Assembly (NCBI GenBank): GCA_030680605.1
Contig: JAUXUQ010000002.1
Coordinates: 257,536 to 321,535, forward strand
DNA: 64,000 nt
Origin: Gammaproteobacteria bacterium
GTDB taxonomy: Bacteria; Pseudomonadota; Gammaproteobacteria; SURF-13
Direction of reading: 5' to 3'
Shown here: positions 19,214-27,766 of the stretch, in pieces
Position numbering within the stretch: position 1 is the stretch's first letter
How the letters are laid out: every line of letters begins with the position of its first letter
Program-made: the position numbers and the translations under genes
The notes under the pieces: generated by a model
The model's database searches: none
What the model was told of the DNA's origin: nothing
What the model saw: only the letters and a program-made list of their open reading frames with translations

Positions 19214-20560
19214 TTAAATAGCGCAAGATCGGTCATGGGAGTGCTCCCTGAGCGCAGAGGATACGGCTGCATCGACATCGGCCGGCATCATGGTTGCAAG
19301 ATTCAATCCGCGCGCGATACGCAGGCCGTAGTCGTTGTCGGCCTGCGTGAAATGCGCCAGCTGTCGTAACTGGATATCGCGTTCGGCAAGCTGAAGTGCG
19401 TGAACGATATTGGTCGCGAGATGTGTCTTCGCATCTTCGCTCAGCGCCCGGAAGTACGCACCGGCCTGGGCGTAGTCGTCATGTGGCCTGGTCGCTTCAG
19501 TTGTCGCCTTGAGCATGTGAGGGTTGTCTGCGTCCAGACCGTCCAACTGAGGCTGCAAATGCAGCGGTGTGGCATTGCGTGTGTTGGTGTGCCAGGCCGC
19601 CAGGTAGGGCAGCATGCTATTGGCAGGCAATCCGATGCCGGGTACCACATGGGCAGGCGAGAAGCTGGCCTCGCCTACTGTGCGGGCGTAATCCTCCGGG
19701 TTACGATTGAGCACGAGACGACCTGCCGGGATGAGTGGATAGTCGGTGACAGGCCATATGCGGGTCGGATCGCAGGGGTCAAAGGGGCAAGCGGCCGCAT
19801 CCTCGTCCGGCATGATCTGCACGAGCATCCTCCACGCCGCTGTACCGCCCTTGTTCAGGGTCGTCAGCAGGTCCCAGGTTGTGTAATTGGGGTTATCCGC
19901 CGCACGCTGCATGGCCCGTTTTAGGTCGATGTTCTCTTTCCCCTGCTCTGTTTCGAAGTGGTACTTCACCCACACTGTCTCGCCTGCTTGATTAACCCAC
20001 CTCGCTACGTGTGCGCCATATGCATCCATGTGCCGGAAAGACCTGGGTGTGCCATCGTCGGAAAACAGCAGCGTCAGCAGGGAGGTTGCCTCGGGCGTGC
20101 GCGAGAGAAAATCCCAGATCCGGTTCGGGTCTTTGCGGTTGAGCACGCTGTGCGTTTTCTGGCTGCGCACCAGGGACTCATATTTGGCCGGGTCGCGTAT
20201 GAAAAACAAGGGCATATTGCCGCCGATGATGTCGTAGACTCCTTGCTCCGTGTGCAGCTTGAGTGCGATGCCGTATATTTCGCGCGCGCCGTCGGCCACA
20301 TGCCTGCCCCCCGACGGTACGGTAAACCGCATGAATACGGGTGTGCGCTTGTGCGCTTTGGCAAGAAACTGCGCGCTGCACCAAGGTGTGAGGTCGTCGG
20401 TGGCCTCGAAATAGCCATAGGCGCCGGCACTGAACAGCTGTGGTACGCCCCTGGAGCAGGCCGCGCTGGGTGTGGGCTCTGCGTGGCCTGAAGACTGGGG
20501 GCGTCTGTTTTCAGGGCGCGAGGCAGGTTTTAAAGCGACTACATTGGCTGTCGTGCGCAT
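19214..20560 (-). CDS. Catalase-family (catalase-related) protein lacking the canonical N-terminal distal-His RERIPERVVHAKG segment
   Basis: Strong similarity to the catalase core (YGYFEAT, PLFFIRDPAKYESLV...KDPNRIWDFLS, FSDDGTPRSFRHMDAYG, WVKYHFETEQG). The normally upstream heme-distal His motif is not evident. Start chosen at MRTTAN. Confidence 0.7.
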   Translation of the reverse strand: MRTTANVVALKPASRPENRRPQSSGHAEPTPSAACSRGVPQLFSAGAYGYFEATDDLTPWCSAQFLAKAHKRTPVFMRFTVPSGGRHVADGAREIYGIALKLHTEQGVYDIIGGNMPLFFIRDPAKYESLVRSQKTHSVLNRKDPNRIWDFLSRTPEATSLLTLLFSDDGTPRSFRHMDAYGAHVARWVNQAGETVWVKYHFETEQGKENIDLKRAMQRAADNPNYTTWDLLTTLNKGGTAAWRMLVQIMPDEDAAACPFDPCDPTRIWPVTDYPLIPAGRLVLNRNPEDYARTVGEASFSPAHVVPGIGLPANSMLPYLAAWHTNTRNATPLHLQPQLDGLDADNPHMLKATTEATRPHDDYAQAGAYFRALSEDAKTHLATNIVHALQLAERDIQLRQLAHFTQADNDYGLRIARGLNLATMMPADVDAAVSSALREHSHDRSCAI

Positions 20561-20637
20561 GCGTCTTTCCTCCCTGGCTTGGCCCAACTCGGGATGTACA
20601 TCTTTATTCAGAATAATCCGGCCGCAAATGTGTCGCC

Positions 20638-20883: not shown

Positions 20884-22575
20884 ATGCTCAACCAATTTAT
20901 TCATGAACCCCGCATCGCCTATTTCTCCATGGAGATTGCGCTGCGCAAGGAAATTCCAACTTACAGCGGCGGGTTAGGGGTGCTGGCGGGCGACACGGTG
21001 CGTGCGGCGGCTGATCTTGAATTGCCGCTGGTCGCCGTGACGCTGGCAAGCCGCGCAGGTTATTTCCGCCAGGAAATCAATGCCCAGGGCCGGCAGGTGG
21101 AGCATCCGGATACATGGGAGCCGGCCCGCTGGGCCTCGCGTCTCACGGCAGCGGTGGCTATCCAGATAGAAGGACGTGATGTATGGGTGTGTGGTTGGCT
21201 CTACGAGTTGCAGGGCCATATGAACGGACGCATACCCGTTATCCTGCTCGACACCAGTCTGGCTGAAAACAGCGCGGAGGATCGCGCCATTACCGATCAC
21301 CTGTATGGCGGCGATACCGCCTATCGCCTGAAGCAGGAGATCGTGCTGGGTATTGGGGGTGTGCGCATGCTGCAGGCGCTGGGCTTTACCATTCGTCAAT
21401 ATCACATGAATGAAGGTCACTCCGCGCTGCTGGCGCTGGAGTTGTTGCGCCGTTACGCCTATCCGGCGGAGGATTTGCGCCCCGGCGAGTCACCCTACGA
21501 TGTCCCGCGCGTCAGGGAGCTGTGTAATTTCACTACCCATACGCCGGTCGAGGCGGGGCACGACCAGTTTCCTTATGATCTGGTAACCCGGGTGTTGAAT
21601 GATTTTATTGATCGCGCCACGCTCCAGTCGCTGGCGGGAAAAGACGCGCTTAACATGACCCGGCTGGCGCTCAATCTCAGCCAGTTCGTCAATGGTGTGG
21701 CCAAGCGCCATGCCGAGGTGTCACGGAAACTTTATCCGGGTTACCGTGTGCATGCCGTGACTAACGGCGTGCACCCGTACTCATGGACGTCGCCGCCATT
21801 TGCGAAGCTGTACGATCATTATCTTCCAGGCTGGTGTCATGAGCCGGAGCTATTGTCACGCGCCGATCGTATCCCGGACGAGGCGATCTGGATGGCGCAT
21901 GCCGAGGCGAAGCGCGCGTTGATTGACAAGGTCAAGGAACTGACCTCCGTAGCACTGAGTCCGCACGTCCCCATTCTCGGCTTTGCACGCCGCATGACTG
22001 CCTACAAACGGCCAGACCTGCTGTTTTCAGATCTCGCGAGGCTCAAGGCGATCGCCGACGAGCGCCCGTTTCAGCTGGTGCTTGCGGGCAAGGCGCATCC
22101 GCGCGATGAAGGCGGCAAGCGCCTGATCGCGCTGCTCCATCAATATATGCGTGAACTCGCGGGGAGTATCACCATCGCATACCTGCCCAACTATGACTTG
22201 GACATTGCGGCGGTGATGACGGCAGGCGTTGACGTGTGGCTCAACACGCCGCTCCGCCCCATGGAGGCCTCAGGCACCAGCGGCATGAAGGCCGCCTTCA
22301 ACGGCGTGCCGCAGCTGAGCGTGCTGGATGGCTGGTGGATCGAGGGTTATATTGAGGGTGTAACGGGCTGGGCCGTCGGTGATTCCAGCGAGAAGCATAA
22401 TGGAGAAGATGCGCAATCACTGTACCAGCAGCTGGAGGATAAGGTGTTGCCGCTGTATTACAGCAACCGCGCCGGGTGGATAGGCATGATGAAGGGCGCG
22501 ATCACCAAGAATGCCTCGTATTTCAACAGCCACCGCATGATGCGGCGCTATGCCACGGAAGCCTATATCCGCTGA
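20884..22575 (+). CDS. Alpha-glucan family phosphorylase (short archaeal/MalP-like glycogen phosphorylase)
   Basis: 563 aa. YFSMEIA...[10 protein letters not shown]-terminus. PLP-lysine region ...[15 protein letters not shown]. Confidence 0.8.
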
Positions 22576-22585
22576 ACGTGCGCCT

Positions 22586-23665
22586 TCATTCGGCATGCAT
22601 GGCGACCGGGATGCGGTGGCGCCCGAAGTGGCCGGCCTGTGTGTCGAACCTTCCCGCCAGCGGCGTGTGGCATTGCGGGCACTGGCCCTGCGGCGTTACG
22701 CGGTATTCCAGAATCTCGTACCAGTCACGCACAATAAGCGGCGTCCGGCACTGCGCACAATACGTCGTGTCGCCCTCGGGGTCGTGCACATTGCCGGTGT
22801 ACACGTAATGCAGGCCGGCATTCATGGCGATGCGGCGCGCGCGTTGCAGCGTTGCGGCGGGTGTGGCAGGGATATCGAGCATCTTGTAGTCGGGGTGAAA
22901 GGCGCTGAAGTGCAGCGGCACGTCGGGGCCGAGGTTTTCCATGATCCACTCGCTCATGCGGGTAAGCTCTTCATCGGAGTCATTGTGGCCCGGGATGAGC
23001 AGGGTGGTGATTTCAAACCACACCTGGGTCTCGTGCTTTAGATACTTGAGCGTTTCCAGCACCGGCGCGAGGCGGGCGCCGGTGAGCTTGTAGTAAAACT
23101 CGTCGGTGAACGCCTTCAGGTCGACGTTGGCCGCATCTATTTTGGCGTAGAAATCACGTCGCGGTTCGGCGTGCATATACCCTGCGGTTACTGCCACGGT
23201 CCGAATGCCGCGCGCGTGGCAGGCGTCCGCAACGTCCATCGCATATTCGGCGAAGATCACCGGATCGTTATAGGTAAACGCCACGCTCTTGCAGCCGAGG
23301 TCGCGGGCCTTGCGCGCGATGGCTTCCGGACTTGCCTCGTCGGTCAGGCGGTCAAAGTCGCGCGATTTTGAAATATCCCAGTTCTGGCAAAACTTGCAGG
23401 CGAGATTGCAGCCTGCGGTGCCGAAGGAAAATACGCTGCTACCGGGGTAGAAATGGTTGAGCGGCTTCTTCTCGATCGGATCTATGCAGAAACCGGATGA
23501 GCGCCCGTAGGTTGTCAGCACCATCTGGTCGCCGATGCGGCTGCGCACAAAGCAGGCGCCGCGCTGGCCCTCGTGCAGCTTGCAGTCGCGCGGGCAGAGA
23601 TCGCACTGGATGCGTCCGTCGTCCAGTTTGTGCCAGTAGCGGCCGGGAAAGTTCTCGTTAGTCAT
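22586..23665 (-). CDS. amrS: AmmeMemoRadiSam system radical SAM enzyme (AmrS)
   Basis: CDLCPRDC and CNLACKFCQNW radical-SAM cluster motifs. C-terminal CxxC...CxxC. Last gene of the amrB-amrA-amrS trio. Confidence 0.85.
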   Translation of the reverse strand: MTNENFPGRYWHKLDDGRIQCDLCPRDCKLHEGQRGACFVRSRIGDQMVLTTYGRSSGFCIDPIEKKPLNHFYPGSSVFSFGTAGCNLACKFCQNWDISKSRDFDRLTDEASPEAIARKARDLGCKSVAFTYNDPVIFAEYAMDVADACHARGIRTVAVTAGYMHAEPRRDFYAKIDAANVDLKAFTDEFYYKLTGARLAPVLETLKYLKHETQVWFEITTLLIPGHNDSDEELTRMSEWIMENLGPDVPLHFSAFHPDYKMLDIPATPAATLQRARRIAMNAGLHYVYTGNVHDPEGDTTYCAQCRTPLIVRDWYEILEYRVTPQGQCPQCHTPLAGRFDTQAGHFGRHRIPVAMHAE

Positions 23666-24246
23666 AGTGTGCCCGATGCTGTCCCGGCTTCAGCCAATGA
23701 ATCCCGTTCATGCCATTTGCGTACGGTGTAGCGGTAGACCTCGATTTCCTGCGCCCAGAAATCAGCGGGCAAGCCCGCTTTTTGCTTGAGCTCGCGCAGG
23801 AAATCGCGCGTACCGGGCAGGTGTTGCCACACCTGCGGCAGGAAGGTGCCGCGTTGCGCGCCGTAGCGCAGCACCACGCCATCGGTGTGAGGCCGCAGTT
23901 GCGCGTGCAGATCGGACTCGTCCTTGAAATCCAGCGGCTCCATCCGCGAGAGCAGTGAAATCTCGATGCACGTGTGCGGCAGTTCGGGGGCGGTCAACGG
24001 TATAAAGCGCGGATCGTGGAACGCGGCGGCGACCGCGTTGGCGCGCACGTCTTCCATGAGCGGGCGATGTGCCTCAAGTGTGCCGATGCACCCACGCAGC
24101 CTGTCATGCTGCGTGAGCGTGACGAAGCACGCACCGCGCTCGCGGAGCCAGTCCGCCGCAGCTGGGTTGGCGGCTGGCCCACCCAGCGCCGCGTGGATAC
24201 TGGCGCGTGCAAGGCCAAGCAGGATTGCGCCTTGCTCAGTGTGCAT
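23662..24246 (-). CDS. amrA: AMMECR1-domain protein (AmrA)
   Basis: AMMECR1 core ...GACFVTL...LRGCIGT.... Sits between the Memo-like and radical-SAM genes. Confidence 0.8.
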   Translation of the reverse strand: MHTEQGAILLGLARASIHAALGGPAANPAAADWLRERGACFVTLTQHDRLRGCIGTLEAHRPLMEDVRANAVAAAFHDPRFIPLTAPELPHTCIEISLLSRMEPLDFKDESDLHAQLRPHTDGVVLRYGAQRGTFLPQVWQHLPGTRDFLRELKQKAGLPADFWAQEIEVYRYTVRKWHERDSLAEAGTASGTL

Positions 24247-25051
24247 GTGTCTCGTCCTCATAAAATGCAAAGGCGCTGTAGCCCACGACCTGATCGCGCG
24301 GCCCGGCGGTGTCGCCGGAATTGCGCAGATCGAGCAGCGTGGAGCGCAACCGGCGTCTGCGCGCGACCGCCAACAAGCCGTTTACCGGCGTGGCGCCGCA
24401 GGCCTGTTCGTGCGTCAGCGTTCCCGGGCCGAGGGCAAGAATCTGCTGCGCCGTTGCTCCGTCCACGTCGCACGCGGTGGCGTAGGACAGATAGTGTGAA
24501 AGGTCGGAACTGATTACGATGAGGGTTTCCGCCCCGCCCCACAATGCGTCTATCACCTCGGCCACCTCGTCGGGCGTGGCATCGCCCACGGCCAGTGGCA
24601 CTATGCTGAAATCACCCAGCAGGCGTTGCAGGAACGGCAACTGCACTTCGAGTGAGTGCTCCAGCGCGTGCGCGGCGGCGCTTACGCCGACCTGCGGCAG
24701 ATGCGCGATGGCATGCATAGCATCAGCATCCACCGGGATCACGCCGAGCGGCGTTGCCAGGGCCTGCGCCTCCGGCAGCGCGAGTCCGCGTATCGGCACG
24801 CGATGTACCGGCCCGAGCAGTACCACGCGGCGGATCCTGTGTGCCGCCTGCCTCAGGCGCGCATAGGCGCTCGCTGCGACTGGCCCGGAGTACACATAAC
24901 CCGCATGCGGCACGATGATCACTTTAGGCGCTGTCTCGGAAAATTCATTACTCACGGCACTCAATAACTCATCTACCGTGCGTACAAGCTCGGTGGGGCG
25001 GGCGGGGTAAAAACTGCCGGCAACGGCAGGTGGACGGATAGTATGTGACAT
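24236..25051 (-). CDS. amrB: AmmeMemoRadiSam system protein B (MEMO1-family)
   Basis: Start motif PAVAGSFYP, HAGYVYSG, HSLEVQLPFL, typical of Memo-like proteins. Confidence 0.8.
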   Translation of the reverse strand: MSHTIRPPAVAGSFYPARPTELVRTVDELLSAVSNEFSETAPKVIIVPHAGYVYSGPVAASAYARLRQAAHRIRRVVLLGPVHRVPIRGLALPEAQALATPLGVIPVDADAMHAIAHLPQVGVSAAAHALEHSLEVQLPFLQRLLGDFSIVPLAVGDATPDEVAEVIDALWGGAETLIVISSDLSHYLSYATACDVDGATAQQILALGPGTLTHEQACGATPVNGLLAVARRRRLRSTLLDLRNSGDTAGPRDQVVGYSAFAFYEDETHAH

Positions 25052-25154
25052 AGGGCAGATATGGGGGCGTACGGCGCCTATCTCAAGGTTGCAGCGCACC
25101 GGTGCGAGTGTTTTCGAGGCTGGACCAAGCGTAGTCGAAGGGCTCAGGATGAGT

Positions 25155-26879
25155 TCACAGCGTGCGCGCCAACAAGGCGCGCAATTCCTTGAGCGGGCGC
25201 GTGTTCAGGACGTCGCCCTTCTCCAGCCAGCCACGCCGCGCCTGGCCCACGCCAAAGCGCAAATTGTCGAACTGGTTTGCGCTGTGTGCATCGGAGTTGA
25301 TGGCGACCAGCACGCCTTCCTCTTTTGCCATCTGGGCGTAGATGTCGAGCAGGTCGAGCCGTTCCGGGTGCGCATTGATCTCCAGAAAACAGCCACGTTC
25401 GCGCGCATGGCGGATGATGCGCAGCATGTCGGCATCATAGGGGGCGCGCTCCTCGATCAGGCGCCCGGTGGGGTGGGCAAGGATGGAGAAGTGCGGATGA
25501 TCCATCGCCTTCAGAATGCGTGTAGTCTGTTTGGCCCGAGAGAGATTGAAGTGGCTGTGCACTGCAGCAACCACGATATCGAGTTGCCCCAGTAAATTAT
25601 CCGGCAAATCCAGCGCACCGTCTTCCAGAATGTCCACCTCGATGCCCTTGAGCAGCGTGATGCCTTTGAGTCTGGCATTCAGCCGGTCGATCTCGCCCAT
25701 CTGTGCCAGTAGTCGTTGTGGAGTGAGGCCATGAGCGATTGTGAGGTGGCGAGAGTGTTCAGTGATGGCGAGATATTCAAGGCCGTGTTGCCTCGCCGCC
25801 TCTGCCATTTCGCGCAGCGTATTGCGCCCGTCGGTGGCCTTGGTATGCGCATGCAGGTCGCCGCGCAGATCGGCGAGTTGGATCAGCCTGGGCAGCCGGT
25901 GCGCGCGCGCCGCTTCGATTTCGCCACGGTTTTCGCGCAGCTCCGGTTCGATATAGGGCAGGCCGACGGCTGCATATACCGATTCTTCGGTTTGGCCCGC
26001 GATGCGCTGTTTGCCGCGGAATACACCGTACTCGTTGATCTTGAGACCCATCTCCTGACCGATCTTGCGAATCGTGATGTTGTGCGATTTGCTGCCGGTA
26101 AAATAGTGCAGCGCGGCGCCGTACGCCTGTTGCGCCACCACGCGGATGTCCACCTGCAGTTTGGAGCGAAGGCGCACTGTGGCGCGCGTGGTGCCCTTGG
26201 ATACAACTTCCGCCACTTCGTCATAGTTGACGAAACGATCCATGACCGGGCTGCTACGACTCGCGGTGACGAGGATATCGAGGTCGCCCACGGTTTCCTT
26301 GCAACGGCGAAAACTTCCCGCCACGATCACCTGCTGTACACTGGGCACGGCCTTGAGGTAATCCACCAGCCGTTCGCCATATTGTGCCGCCAGCGCCAGC
26401 TTGAAGCGAGCGGTGGTACCGGCTTGCATATCGATGGCATGCAGTATTTTTGCTTCGGTCTTCTCGCCAAATCCGTGCAGAAGTCGGATGCGTCCGTCGC
26501 GCGCGGCGCGCGCCAGTTGGTCGAGCGAGTGGATGTCCAGTTCGTGGTAGAGAACCTTGACCTTCTTCGGGCCGAGGCCGGGGAGTTTGAGCAATTCGAC
26601 GAGCGCGGGCGGAGTCTGTTTTTTCAGCTTGCGCAGCAGGGCGCAGGTGCCGGTGTCGACGATCTCGCGTATTTTTGCGGCAAGGTCGTCGCCGATGCCG
26701 GGCAGATCGGTGAGATCGGCACCGCCCGCGATCATGGCGCCCGCTTCGCGGTTGAGGTCGCTGATCACGCGCGCGGCATTGCGGTAGGCGCGGATCCGGA
26801 ACGGATTGGCGCCTTCGATTTCCAGCAGGCCCGCGATCTCCTCAAACACCGCTGCGATGTCAGTGTTATGGACGACCAT
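25155..26879 (-). CDS. polX: DNA polymerase/3'-5' exonuclease PolX (family X polymerase + PHP phosphoesterase domain)
   Basis: 574 aa. HhH and PolX core (GSFRRCKETVGDLDILV). C-terminal PHP domain (DLHAHT...EHS...HP). Confidence 0.9.
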   Translation of the reverse strand: MVVHNTDIAAVFEEIAGLLEIEGANPFRIRAYRNAARVISDLNREAGAMIAGGADLTDLPGIGDDLAAKIREIVDTGTCALLRKLKKQTPPALVELLKLPGLGPKKVKVLYHELDIHSLDQLARAARDGRIRLLHGFGEKTEAKILHAIDMQAGTTARFKLALAAQYGERLVDYLKAVPSVQQVIVAGSFRRCKETVGDLDILVTASRSSPVMDRFVNYDEVAEVVSKGTTRATVRLRSKLQVDIRVVAQQAYGAALHYFTGSKSHNITIRKIGQEMGLKINEYGVFRGKQRIAGQTEESVYAAVGLPYIEPELRENRGEIEAARAHRLPRLIQLADLRGDLHAHTKATDGRNTLREMAEAARQHGLEYLAITEHSRHLTIAHGLTPQRLLAQMGEIDRLNARLKGITLLKGIEVDILEDGALDLPDNLLGQLDIVVAAVHSHFNLSRAKQTTRILKAMDHPHFSILAHPTGRLIEERAPYDADMLRIIRHARERGCFLEINAHPERLDLLDIYAQMAKEEGVLVAINSDAHSANQFDNLRFGVGQARRGWLEKGDVLNTRPLKELRALLARTL

Positions 26880-26920
26880 GATTCATGCTCATGTGACGCA
26901 ATGCCAACGCTGTAGCCTGG

Positions 26921-27370
26921 CTACACCTTTCTCTTTTTCTCCTGCGCCTGCTCGCGTGAGATGAGCTTGGCTAGCGCCGACAGTTCCTCGGCCAGCAGCT
27001 CGATAATATCGTCCAGTGCGAGTATGCCGACCAGACCACCGCTGGCATTCACTACCGGCAGTCTGCGTACGCCCTTCATGCGCATGAGCTGAATGGTTTC
27101 GAAGACGCCATCCGTGTCACGGGCGCTGGCGAGCTCGAAGCTCATGATATCGCCCACGCTGACCTTGTCGAGATCAACATTTTTTGCCACTACCTCAACG
27201 ACGATGTCACGATCGGTCAGGATCCCGACCGGCACTCTCTGGGCGTCTTTCTCGTCCACCACCAGCACATTGCCGACATGATGCTGACGCATGAGTTGCG
27301 CGGCCTCGCGCACGGAGTCTTCCCGGCGCACGAATACCACTGCACGACTGCAGAGTTCACCGATGGGCAT
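26921..27370 (-). CDS. CBS-domain pair protein
   Basis: Two CBS motifs (VGILTDRDIV, GLVGILALDDII). 149 aa. Confidence 0.8.
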   Translation of the reverse strand: MPIGELCSRAVVFVRREDSVREAAQLMRQHHVGNVLVVDEKDAQRVPVGILTDRDIVVEVVAKNVDLDKVSVGDIMSFELASARDTDGVFETIQLMRMKGVRRLPVVNASGGLVGILALDDIIELLAEELSALAKLISREQAQEKKRKV

Positions 27371-27499: not shown

Positions 27500-27645
27500 A
27501 AATGGCGTCCCCAAGGGGATTACTCGCGCCATCCATGGCGCTCGCCCTTCGGGCCAGCGTCGCTTCACGACGCTGTTCCGCGCACGCTCCCGGCGTGCGC
27601 AGGTCGAACCTTCGGTTCTCATCCCCTTGGGGAAAGCAGTACACA
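27500..27645 (+). ncRNA. Candidate structured RNA or tRNA-Glu-derived element. A 13-bp long-range helix (TCCCCAAGGGGAT/ATCCCCTTGGGGA) encloses five hairpins, two of them capped by C(UUCG)G tetraloops on the + strand. Starts with a 21-nt duplicate of the tRNA-Glu 3' end.
   Basis: Hairpins read directly: GCGCCA..TGGCGC; GCC-cTTCGg-GC; CAGCGTCG-cttca-CGACGCTG; GCGCACGC-tcccg-GCGTGCGC; GAACC-TTCG-GGTTC. AATGGCGTCCCCAAGGGGATT at 27500-27520 equals 27689-27709. A bidirectional terminator follows. Confidence 0.35.
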
Positions 27646-27647
27646 AA

Positions 27648-27688
27648 AAAGCGGGGCGCCTGAAAGTAGGCGCCCCGCTTTATTTGTT
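27648..27688. terminator. Bidirectional rho-independent terminator (GCGGGGCGCC-tgaaagta-GGCGCCCCGC flanked by A-run/T-run)
   Basis: 10-bp GC stem with U-runs on both strands. Terminates the minus-strand tRNA-Ala/tRNA-Glu unit and potentially the plus-strand structured element. Confidence 0.75.
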
Positions 27689-27690
27689 AA

Positions 27691-27766
27691 TGGCGTCCCC
27701 AAGGGGATTCGAACCCCTGTCGCCGCCGTGAAAGGGCAGTGTCCTAGGCCTCTAGACGATGGGGAC
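27691..27766 (-). tRNA. tRNA-Glu (anticodon TTC), CCA encoded
   Basis: Reverse complement GTCCCCATCGTCTAGAGGCCTAGGACACTGCCCTTTCACGGCGGCGACAGGGGTTCGAATCCCCTTGGGGACGCCA. Near-identical to E. coli tRNA-Glu. Confidence 0.95.

Follow-up and report, generated by a model that had tools for sequence, protein, structure and literature searches.

Does the close packing of an AmmeMemoRadiSam gene trio with the gene of the repair polymerase PolX mean that their products share a pathway? The question is raised by a five-gene run on the minus strand (positions 22586 to 27370) of the window, the 64,000-nt stretch of the 386-kb contig JAUXUQ010000002.1 (Gammaproteobacteria bacterium) analyzed here. In this run, a CBS-pair gene and polX precede the Memo-like gene amrB, the AMMECR1 family gene amrA, and the radical S-adenosylmethionine (SAM) enzyme gene amrS (together, amrBAS). 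The first-pass annotation took the linkage as a hint of a nucleic-acid-related substrate or a repair role of the trio. That role is unsupported, as the linkage is confined to one clade and amrBAS probably has a separate promoter, two outcomes that the annotation itself had listed as counting against it. It is probable that two separately conserved modules are adjacent here through shared ancestry in one clade and do not form one pathway. The modules are separable because the trio is conserved alone, PolX is missing from the neighborhood of the trio, and the two occur apart.

The first module would be the ancient amrB-amrA-amrS cassette, which combines a PFL-activase-like radical SAM enzyme, an AMMECR1 protein, in whose cleft a cysteine is conserved, and a metal-site protein of the Memo type and presumably performs a radical-initiated modification of some substrate. 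The second would be a unit for the repair of DNA ends, centered on PolX, in which the polymerase would fill gaps and its PHP domain would clean 3' ends. Both activities are established for the PolX enzymes of Thermus and Bacillus.

The five genes and their known relatives

All five genes lie head-to-tail on the minus strand, as the first-pass annotation had described with their tight packing. The identities proposed there also stand, with the Amr trio and PolX scoring beyond the NCBIfam cutoffs and the CBS pair scoring beyond that of Pfam. The first gene of the run encodes a stand-alone CBS-pair protein (26921 to 27370; 149 aa), in which PF00571 matches two stretches with 90 bits. An AGGAGG ribosome-binding site is read 5 nt ahead of its ATG, and an ortholog with 89% identity occupies the equivalent position in L174 and L176 (labels of this form denote the comparison loci, about 180 related loci overall). 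PolX follows (25155 to 26879; 574 aa) and matches NF006375 over residues 4 to 572 with 563 bits (cutoff, 426 bits). The Pfam domains HHH_8, HHH_5, palm, thumb, and PHP make up a Pol-beta-like core with a C-terminal PHP domain, and the motifs GSFRR188, DLD199, and HAH343 are present. From the DxD and HxH motifs, the enzyme is predicted to act as a polymerase and as a 3'-5' exonuclease/3'-phosphoesterase. It resembles ttPolX from Thermus thermophilus (3au2), with 501 bits over the full length, the same Pol-beta core and PHP domain, and the same motifs. The PolX of Deinococcus radiodurans (PDB 2w9m) is a further bacterial comparator.

The Memo-like protein AmrB (24236 to 25051; 271 aa) matches TIGR04336 with 272.5 bits (cutoff, 26 bits) and PF01875 with 175.5 bits, and its closest solved structure is human MEMO1. 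AmrA (23662 to 24246; 194 aa) matches TIGR04335 with 203.8 bits (cutoff, 99 bits), and its closest solved structures are the archaeal AMMECR1 homologs 1wsc, 1zq7, and 1vaj. The AmrA motifs RGCIG51 and DPRF78 are intact by the definition given in PMC2034487 (RGChG and DxR[aromatic]). The radical SAM enzyme AmrS (22586 to 23665; 359 aa) reaches 656.8 bits with TIGR04337 (cutoff, 220 bits) and carries the CX3CX2C motif as CNLACKFC at residues 86 to 93, with further CxxC pairs at 21, 303, and 329. Its sole solved relative is the PFL-activating enzyme, with 48 bits.

All three profiles above cutoff, the motifs, the adjacency, and the co-orientation place the trio in AmmeMemoRadiSam (TIGR04335/TIGR04336/TIGR04337, of the NCBIfam type hypoth_equivalog), to which it is alike in scores, motifs, B-A-S order, and overlaps. 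The trio itself shows no difference from AmmeMemoRadiSam elsewhere; what is unusual is the upstream neighbor CBS-PolX, found in this clade only. The run thus adds one more case, in a clade-specific setting, to a system that is known and annotated, and names for AmrS, PolX, and the CBS protein had been assigned by the NCBI pipeline in the source metagenome-assembled genome (MAG) (MDP1707988 and MDP1707991 to MDP1707993). Burroughs et al. are said to have described the Memo-AMMECR1-radical SAM neighborhood in J Biol Chem in 2019. The same three-gene association as in the window appears in the available excerpts of the 2007 paper by Balaji and Aravind (PMC2034487), which do not mention PolX, in contrast to the neighborhood described here.

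Linkage of amrBAS and PolX across genomes

Seen from the side of AmrS, the linkage is nearly absent. The sample, with one genome per GTDB species, comprises 80 loci with AmrS proteins 72 to 81% identical to that of the window, mostly from Burkholderiales and Nitrosomonadales-type bacteria. The order amrB-amrA-amrS on a single strand is kept in 75 of them. PolX lies upstream of amrB in none of the 60 loci that extend 2 kb or more on that side, and within the 966 kb of flanks covered by the count, it occurs in a single locus of the 80 (L005), 2 kb downstream of amrS. A CBS protein resembling that of the window is found in two loci, 4 to 5 kb off. The commonest neighbors of amrBAS are a DLH-type alpha/beta hydrolase gene directly after amrS (27/80; e.g., L002 4199 to 4855) and a divergent ispD upstream (12/80; e.g., L007 7804 to 8514, minus strand). 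The next AmrS relatives (81% identical; L085 to L089) lack PolX as well; L085 to L087 have ispD upstream of amrBAS, and L088/L089 represent Thermithiobacillus tepidarius. A linkage of amrS to polX across genomes is therefore not borne out by these counts, and the PolX side adds only loose, nonconserved proximities. In Hyalangium (L011) and several Terriglobales loci (L170 to L173), AmrS stands alone, with neither AmrA nor AmrB nearby.

Tight adjacency does not recur in independent lineages; it is found in one clade only. Close relatives of the window, recovered by exact-protein lookups and a PolX-anchored metagenome scan, show the tight CBS-PolX-amrBAS order on nine contigs, including the window and two near-duplicates, all from one uncultured gammaproteobacterial clade (identity of 82% or more for AmrS and of 80% or more for PolX). 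L174 and L176 (AmrS, 94 to 95%; PolX, 90 to 91%) have exactly the gene order of the window, with synteny running from icd to gltX in L174 and from icd to the contig end after amrS in L176. In L091 (AmrS, 86%; PolX, 81%), a 270-nt gap separates CBS-PolX from amrBAS. The order DJ-1/PfpI-CBS-PolX-DUF72-amrBAS is found in L081/L090 (AmrS, 87 to 88%; PolX, 83%), L082/L083 (82% and 80%), and L181 (83% and 80%), so that five of the nine contigs have polX and amrB separated by a DUF72 gene, which is joined directly to polX.

Judged by the sizes of the junctions, the genes are tightly coupled within each of two modules, (DJ-1-)CBS-PolX-DUF72 and amrBAS, but not from one module to the other. The PolX/DUF72 junction measures 0 to +8 nt in the five contigs, with a 1-nt overlap in L082, L083, and L181. 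The DJ-1 and CBS genes share 10 nt in L081, L082, and L083 and lie 76 nt apart in L181, and the gap between DUF72 and amrB amounts to 72 to 126 nt across the five contigs. The fuller order DJ-1/PfpI-CBS-PolX-DUF72 is probably ancestral, and DJ-1 and DUF72, absent from the sublineage of the window, would by the simplest account have been lost, leaving the compact five-gene run. A DUF72 remnant in the polX-amrB gap of the window was ruled out, as tblastn gave no match there. For DUF72 (Tm1631), an endonuclease-IV-like DNA repair function has been predicted by computation only (PMC3828134), which fits a PolX repair module.

DJ-1/PfpI adjoins repair polymerases in unrelated contexts as well. Besides DJ-1-CBS-PolX in the clade (L081 4567 to 5588, L082 3322 to 4286, and L181 8900 to 9935), DJ-1 and PolX are separated by a 3-nt gap in L145 (6817 to 9042), where an M50 peptidase-CBS protein precedes them, and DJ-1 overlaps a Y-family (IMS/DinB) polymerase gene in L085 (1866 to 3421).

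From the side of PolX, the metagenome scan with PolX as the anchor gave 78 loci outside the clade; those with PolX 56 to 72% identical have no amr genes in their flanks, and neither do the PolX loci 60 to 75% identical. The next PolX relatives (76% identical; L178/L179) show PolX-DUF72 with a 4-nt overlap and neither CBS nor amr genes. Thiobacillus thioparus (PolX, 72% identical) shows PolX-PGA_cap with no amr genes within 10 kb. An AMP-binding gene was considered as a synteny marker tying the loci with 64 to 67% identical PolX to the clade and was rejected, because its positions are not equivalent and the copies are probably paralogs. The partners of PolX thus differ by lineage, being CBS and amrBAS here; DJ-1, CBS, and DUF72 in the fuller form of the clade; and Archease-RtcB at 60 to 75% identity.

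In this last group, Archease-RtcB stands directly upstream of PolX in 12 of the 27 loci that extend 1.5 kb or more on this side and beside PolX in six further loci, three of them truncated and three convergent. The arrangement is found in L092 (5979 to 9725) and also in L093, L094, L097, L100, L101, L103, L108, L110, L111, L132, and others, with Archease and RtcB on the same strand as PolX and gaps mostly below 160 nt. The L094 locus additionally contains an NTPase and a LigT-like 2H phosphoesterase. Archease, RtcB, and PolX may form a so far undescribed operon for the repair of 3'-phosphate ends; a literature search found no paper naming both "PolX" and "RtcB."

The history of the adjacency may be older than the clade. 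PolX-DUF72 in L178 (10001 to 17163) and amrBAS in L088 (8615 to 17879) occupy the equivalent spot upstream of an orthologous NiFe-hydrogenase block (Fer4, NAD_binding, Oxidored_q6, NiFeSe, and HycI), which is 70 to 73% identical between the two. Most simply, PolX-DUF72 and amrBAS would have been juxtaposed at an earlier time and later separated by reciprocal loss. Whichever history holds, each module persists without the other.

Several observations weigh against two merely adjacent modules. The counts on the AmrS side refer to flanks, and some of the 80 genomes may lack PolX altogether. Within the clade, the adjacency persists down to 82% identity of AmrS and 80% identity of PolX despite indels inside the cluster. 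L005 carries on a single strand amrBAS, a DLH hydrolase, a UDG-superfamily protein, a Macro domain, PolX, and PGA_cap. The Zetaproteobacteria MAG locus L058 (6050 to 11077) reads Archease-RtcB-DedA/VTT-amrB-amrA-amrS on one strand after the his operon, and its RtcB is 68 to 69% identical to the RtcB beside PolX in L092. Four distant PolX loci from three unrelated lineages (L137, L145, and L164/L169) have Amr genes above cutoff 3.5 to 6 kb from PolX. Among these, the hot-spring contig L137 encodes a fused AmrB-AmrA (632 to 2362; 576 aa) with both halves above the NCBIfam cutoffs, and L164/L169 have a lone AmrS. Three lineages in 629 kb of flanks exceed a naive Poisson expectation of 0.18 to 0.53 (P = 0.0008 to 0.016); P is roughly 0.01 to 0.02 if three dispersed amr genes count as three separate targets.

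The distant loci were not accepted as independent support for linkage. Strains 96 to 99.9% identical to L137 lose synteny about 1.6 to 1.8 kb upstream of PolX, and the Terriglobales relatives of AmrS (74 to 79% identical to that of L169) have no PolX within 9 kb, so that for L137 and L164/L169 the proximity is lost in sister strains or relatives. In L145, AmrS is encoded on the other strand, at the edge of the contig and 6 kb away from PolX. As for the repair genes near amrBAS, a UDG gene follows amrBAS-DLH also in L002 and L022, and five loci have LigT-like genes adjoining ispD on the upstream side of amrBAS. Such contacts would fit regional synteny among related proteobacteria; occurring in a few lineages, they remain as weak hints.

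The NAD-salvage genes pncA-pncB, coding for a nicotinamidase-like isochorismatase and NAPRTase, recur on both sides. They stand beside PolX in L094 (10778 to 12678), L104 (2109 to 4066), and L134 (2800 to 4122; NAPRTase alone detected) and at a distance of about 6 kb in L180 (17796 to 19693), and they lie 1 to 7 kb upstream of amrBAS in L006 (2 to 1524) and L085 (5507 to 7431). This recurrence hints at a regional synteny that could account for sporadic proximity of PolX and amr genes.

Gene junctions and transcription of the run

The overlaps of 4 nt (ATGA) between amrA and amrS and of 11 nt between amrB and amrA, the latter with the amrA start taken as the ATG at 24246, are confirmed by the coordinates. 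The gap between the CBS gene and polX measures 41 nt. The 56-bp spacing given earlier for polX and amrB derives from a mechanical GTG start at 25099. All six homologs compared begin 3 to 5 residues before the conserved (I/T)RP-AVAG motif, which places the amrB start at the ATG at 25051, and the intergenic gap is accordingly 103 nt (25052 to 25154, minus strand).

This gap holds a promoter-like block, with TTGAGA at 25086 to 25081, a 17-nt spacer, and CATATC at 25063 to 25058, ending 6 nt ahead of the amrB ATG. A 40-nt block with TTGAGA-17-CATAT(C/T) directly before amrB is kept in the window, L176, and L174, and around it, stretches of 55 nt on the upstream side and about 140 nt on the downstream side have been gained or lost among the three. 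A promoter scan scores the block in L174 as a 9/12 sigma-70-like site. Because the block is conserved while the flanking sequence comes and goes, it suggests a separate amrBAS promoter immediately ahead of amrB, from which the transcript in the window would start at or near the ATG.

Separate promoters and terminators between polX and amrB had been named as evidence that would speak against the earlier reading. The promoter-like block answers to the first part; for the second, no terminator-like hairpin occurs in the 103-nt gap, nor in the 41-nt gap between CBS and polX. A terminator-like hairpin at 25029 to 25014 was discounted, since it has only six pairs and falls within the amrB codons for the conserved stretch PAVAGSFYP. 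Upstream, the cluster is bounded by a strong terminator-like hairpin after tRNA-Glu (27648 to 27681, minus strand), with a 14-pair stem, 10 G-C pairs, and a T-run. Downstream, the boundary is the convergent alpha-glucan phosphorylase gene (20884 to 22575, plus strand; TIGR02094, 548 bits), the stop of which lies 10 nt from that of amrS and an ortholog of which (81 to 83% identical) is found downstream of amrS in L082, L174, and L181.

Judged from these junctions, co-transcription of all five genes is possible. In L174 and L081, gaps of 129 to 184 nt take the place of overlaps between the corresponding genes, which indicates that translational coupling is not strongly constrained; two of these gaps per locus contain copies of a repeat of about 150 nt. 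On the reading of two modules, amrBAS probably retains its own promoter, and read-through from CBS-polX may add expression.

The repeat of about 150 nt, which resembles a miniature inverted-repeat transposable element, is found in intergenic gaps of the CBS-polX-amrBAS clusters of relatives and often ends right before a start codon. Its copies are 91 to 94% identical and lie in direct or inverted orientation (L090 7830 to 7981 and 12045 to 12196; L174 4247 to 4394 and 7852 to 8000; L091 about 2200 to 2400), and it is absent from the 64-kb window. A 32-nt motif that L090 and L091 carry ahead of polX, amrB, and amrS was considered as a common operator and rejected, as it is part of this repeat.

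Substrate proposals and the surroundings of the run

If the two modules were functionally coupled, the five genes would form one operon, and AmmeMemoRadiSam would work with PolX in repair, its target being a nucleic acid, for example a base or an end that is damaged or modified. The co-orientation, the short gaps, the lack of a terminator between the genes, and the retention of the arrangement throughout the clade favor such a coupling, as do the repair genes near amrBAS (UDG-Macro-PolX in L005, UDG in L002 and L022, Archease-RtcB in L058, and LigT-like genes in five loci) and the distant PolX loci that have Amr genes no more than 6 kb away. It is nevertheless unlikely, given that the nearest outgroups on both the AmrS and the PolX sides lack the linkage, that PolX is found in 0/60 loci upstream and in 1/80 anywhere in the flanks, and that the distant colocalizations are lost in the sister strains of L137 and in the Terriglobales AmrS relatives. 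The commonest neighbors of amrBAS, DLH-type hydrolase and IspD, are not repair genes. Deletion of the AMMECR1 homolog aho1 in Schizosaccharomyces pombe left resistance to camptothecin (CPT), methyl methanesulfonate (MMS), hydroxyurea (HU), and UV at wild-type levels, evidence that is indirect, as this organism has no radical SAM partner (PMC6153652).

A looser form of the idea places amrBAS at the periphery of a shifting end-repair and NAD/ADP-ribose neighborhood of sulfur- and iron-oxidizing proteobacteria, composed of PolX, Archease-RtcB, UDG-family, Macro, LigT-like, DUF72, and pncA-pncB genes, with damaged or modified nucleic acid as the substrate. We regard this as quite unlikely; the same sporadic contacts would speak for it, and their compatibility with regional synteny applies to it as well. 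A nucleic-acid substrate, if true, would be the first biochemical lead for the human disease genes AMMECR1 and MEMO1. The idea is not new, since an RNA base as the substrate was already proposed in 2007 by Balaji and Aravind (PMC2034487).

A robust bacterial operon partner would be a real lead for AMMECR1 and MEMO1, and PolX is not such a partner, because its adjacency reflects clade-specific inheritance. Repair-phenotype experiments motivated by this locus alone would stand on weak ground, and the DLH-type hydrolase, the divergent ispD, and the sporadic repair-gene contacts are a better guide to where to look. Both proteins have links to human disease, and their conservation extends from archaea to humans. 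A literature search found no functional study of a prokaryotic AMMECR1.

A coregulated oxidative- or energy-stress island, in which the CBS protein would sense an adenosyl ligand and the genes would act on different targets, is very unlikely: CBS pairs are known as ligand sensors, a catalase gene lies 2 kb away (19214 to 20587), and DJ-1/PfpI precedes CBS-PolX in relatives and occurs also in the unrelated L145, but the neighborhood is otherwise of a housekeeping type (gltX, cysS, icd, tal, ilvBN, and leuA), the convergent phosphorylase gene separates the catalase gene from the cluster, and no shared operator was found, the sole repeated motif in relatives being the mobile repeat of about 150 nt that the window lacks.

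The neighbors on the upstream side are icd, two tRNAs, tal, ilvBN, and leuA, and those on the downstream side are the convergent glucan phosphorylase gene, the catalase gene, cysS, and gltX. Between tRNA-Glu and the CBS gene lies a 190-nt unit that comprises the terminator and a structured RNA and ends by repeating the final ~20 nt of tRNA-Glu. The structured RNA (27503 to 27643, minus strand) matches the Rfam model RtT (RF00391) over its full length with 39.7 bits (gathering score, 45; E = 3.6e-5). The direct repeats of the tRNA-Glu 3' end are at 27711 to 27690 and 27521 to 27500, and the region folds well (z = -4.2). The unit is present in L176; L174 lacks exactly this unit, so that no terminator separates its tRNAs from CBS. 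The possibility that the leader of the CBS gene holds a riboswitch was rejected, as the Rfam search gave only the RtT-like tRNA-associated element below the gathering score.

Farther from the run, ARAGORN reports an unusually long tRNA-Arg(TCT) of 96 nt at 5561 to 5656, near tRNA-Asn at 3495 to 3570. This tRNA-Arg falls within the sole low-GC stretch of the window (4001 to 6000; 0.49 versus ~0.59), which may mark an integration hotspot or an island boundary.

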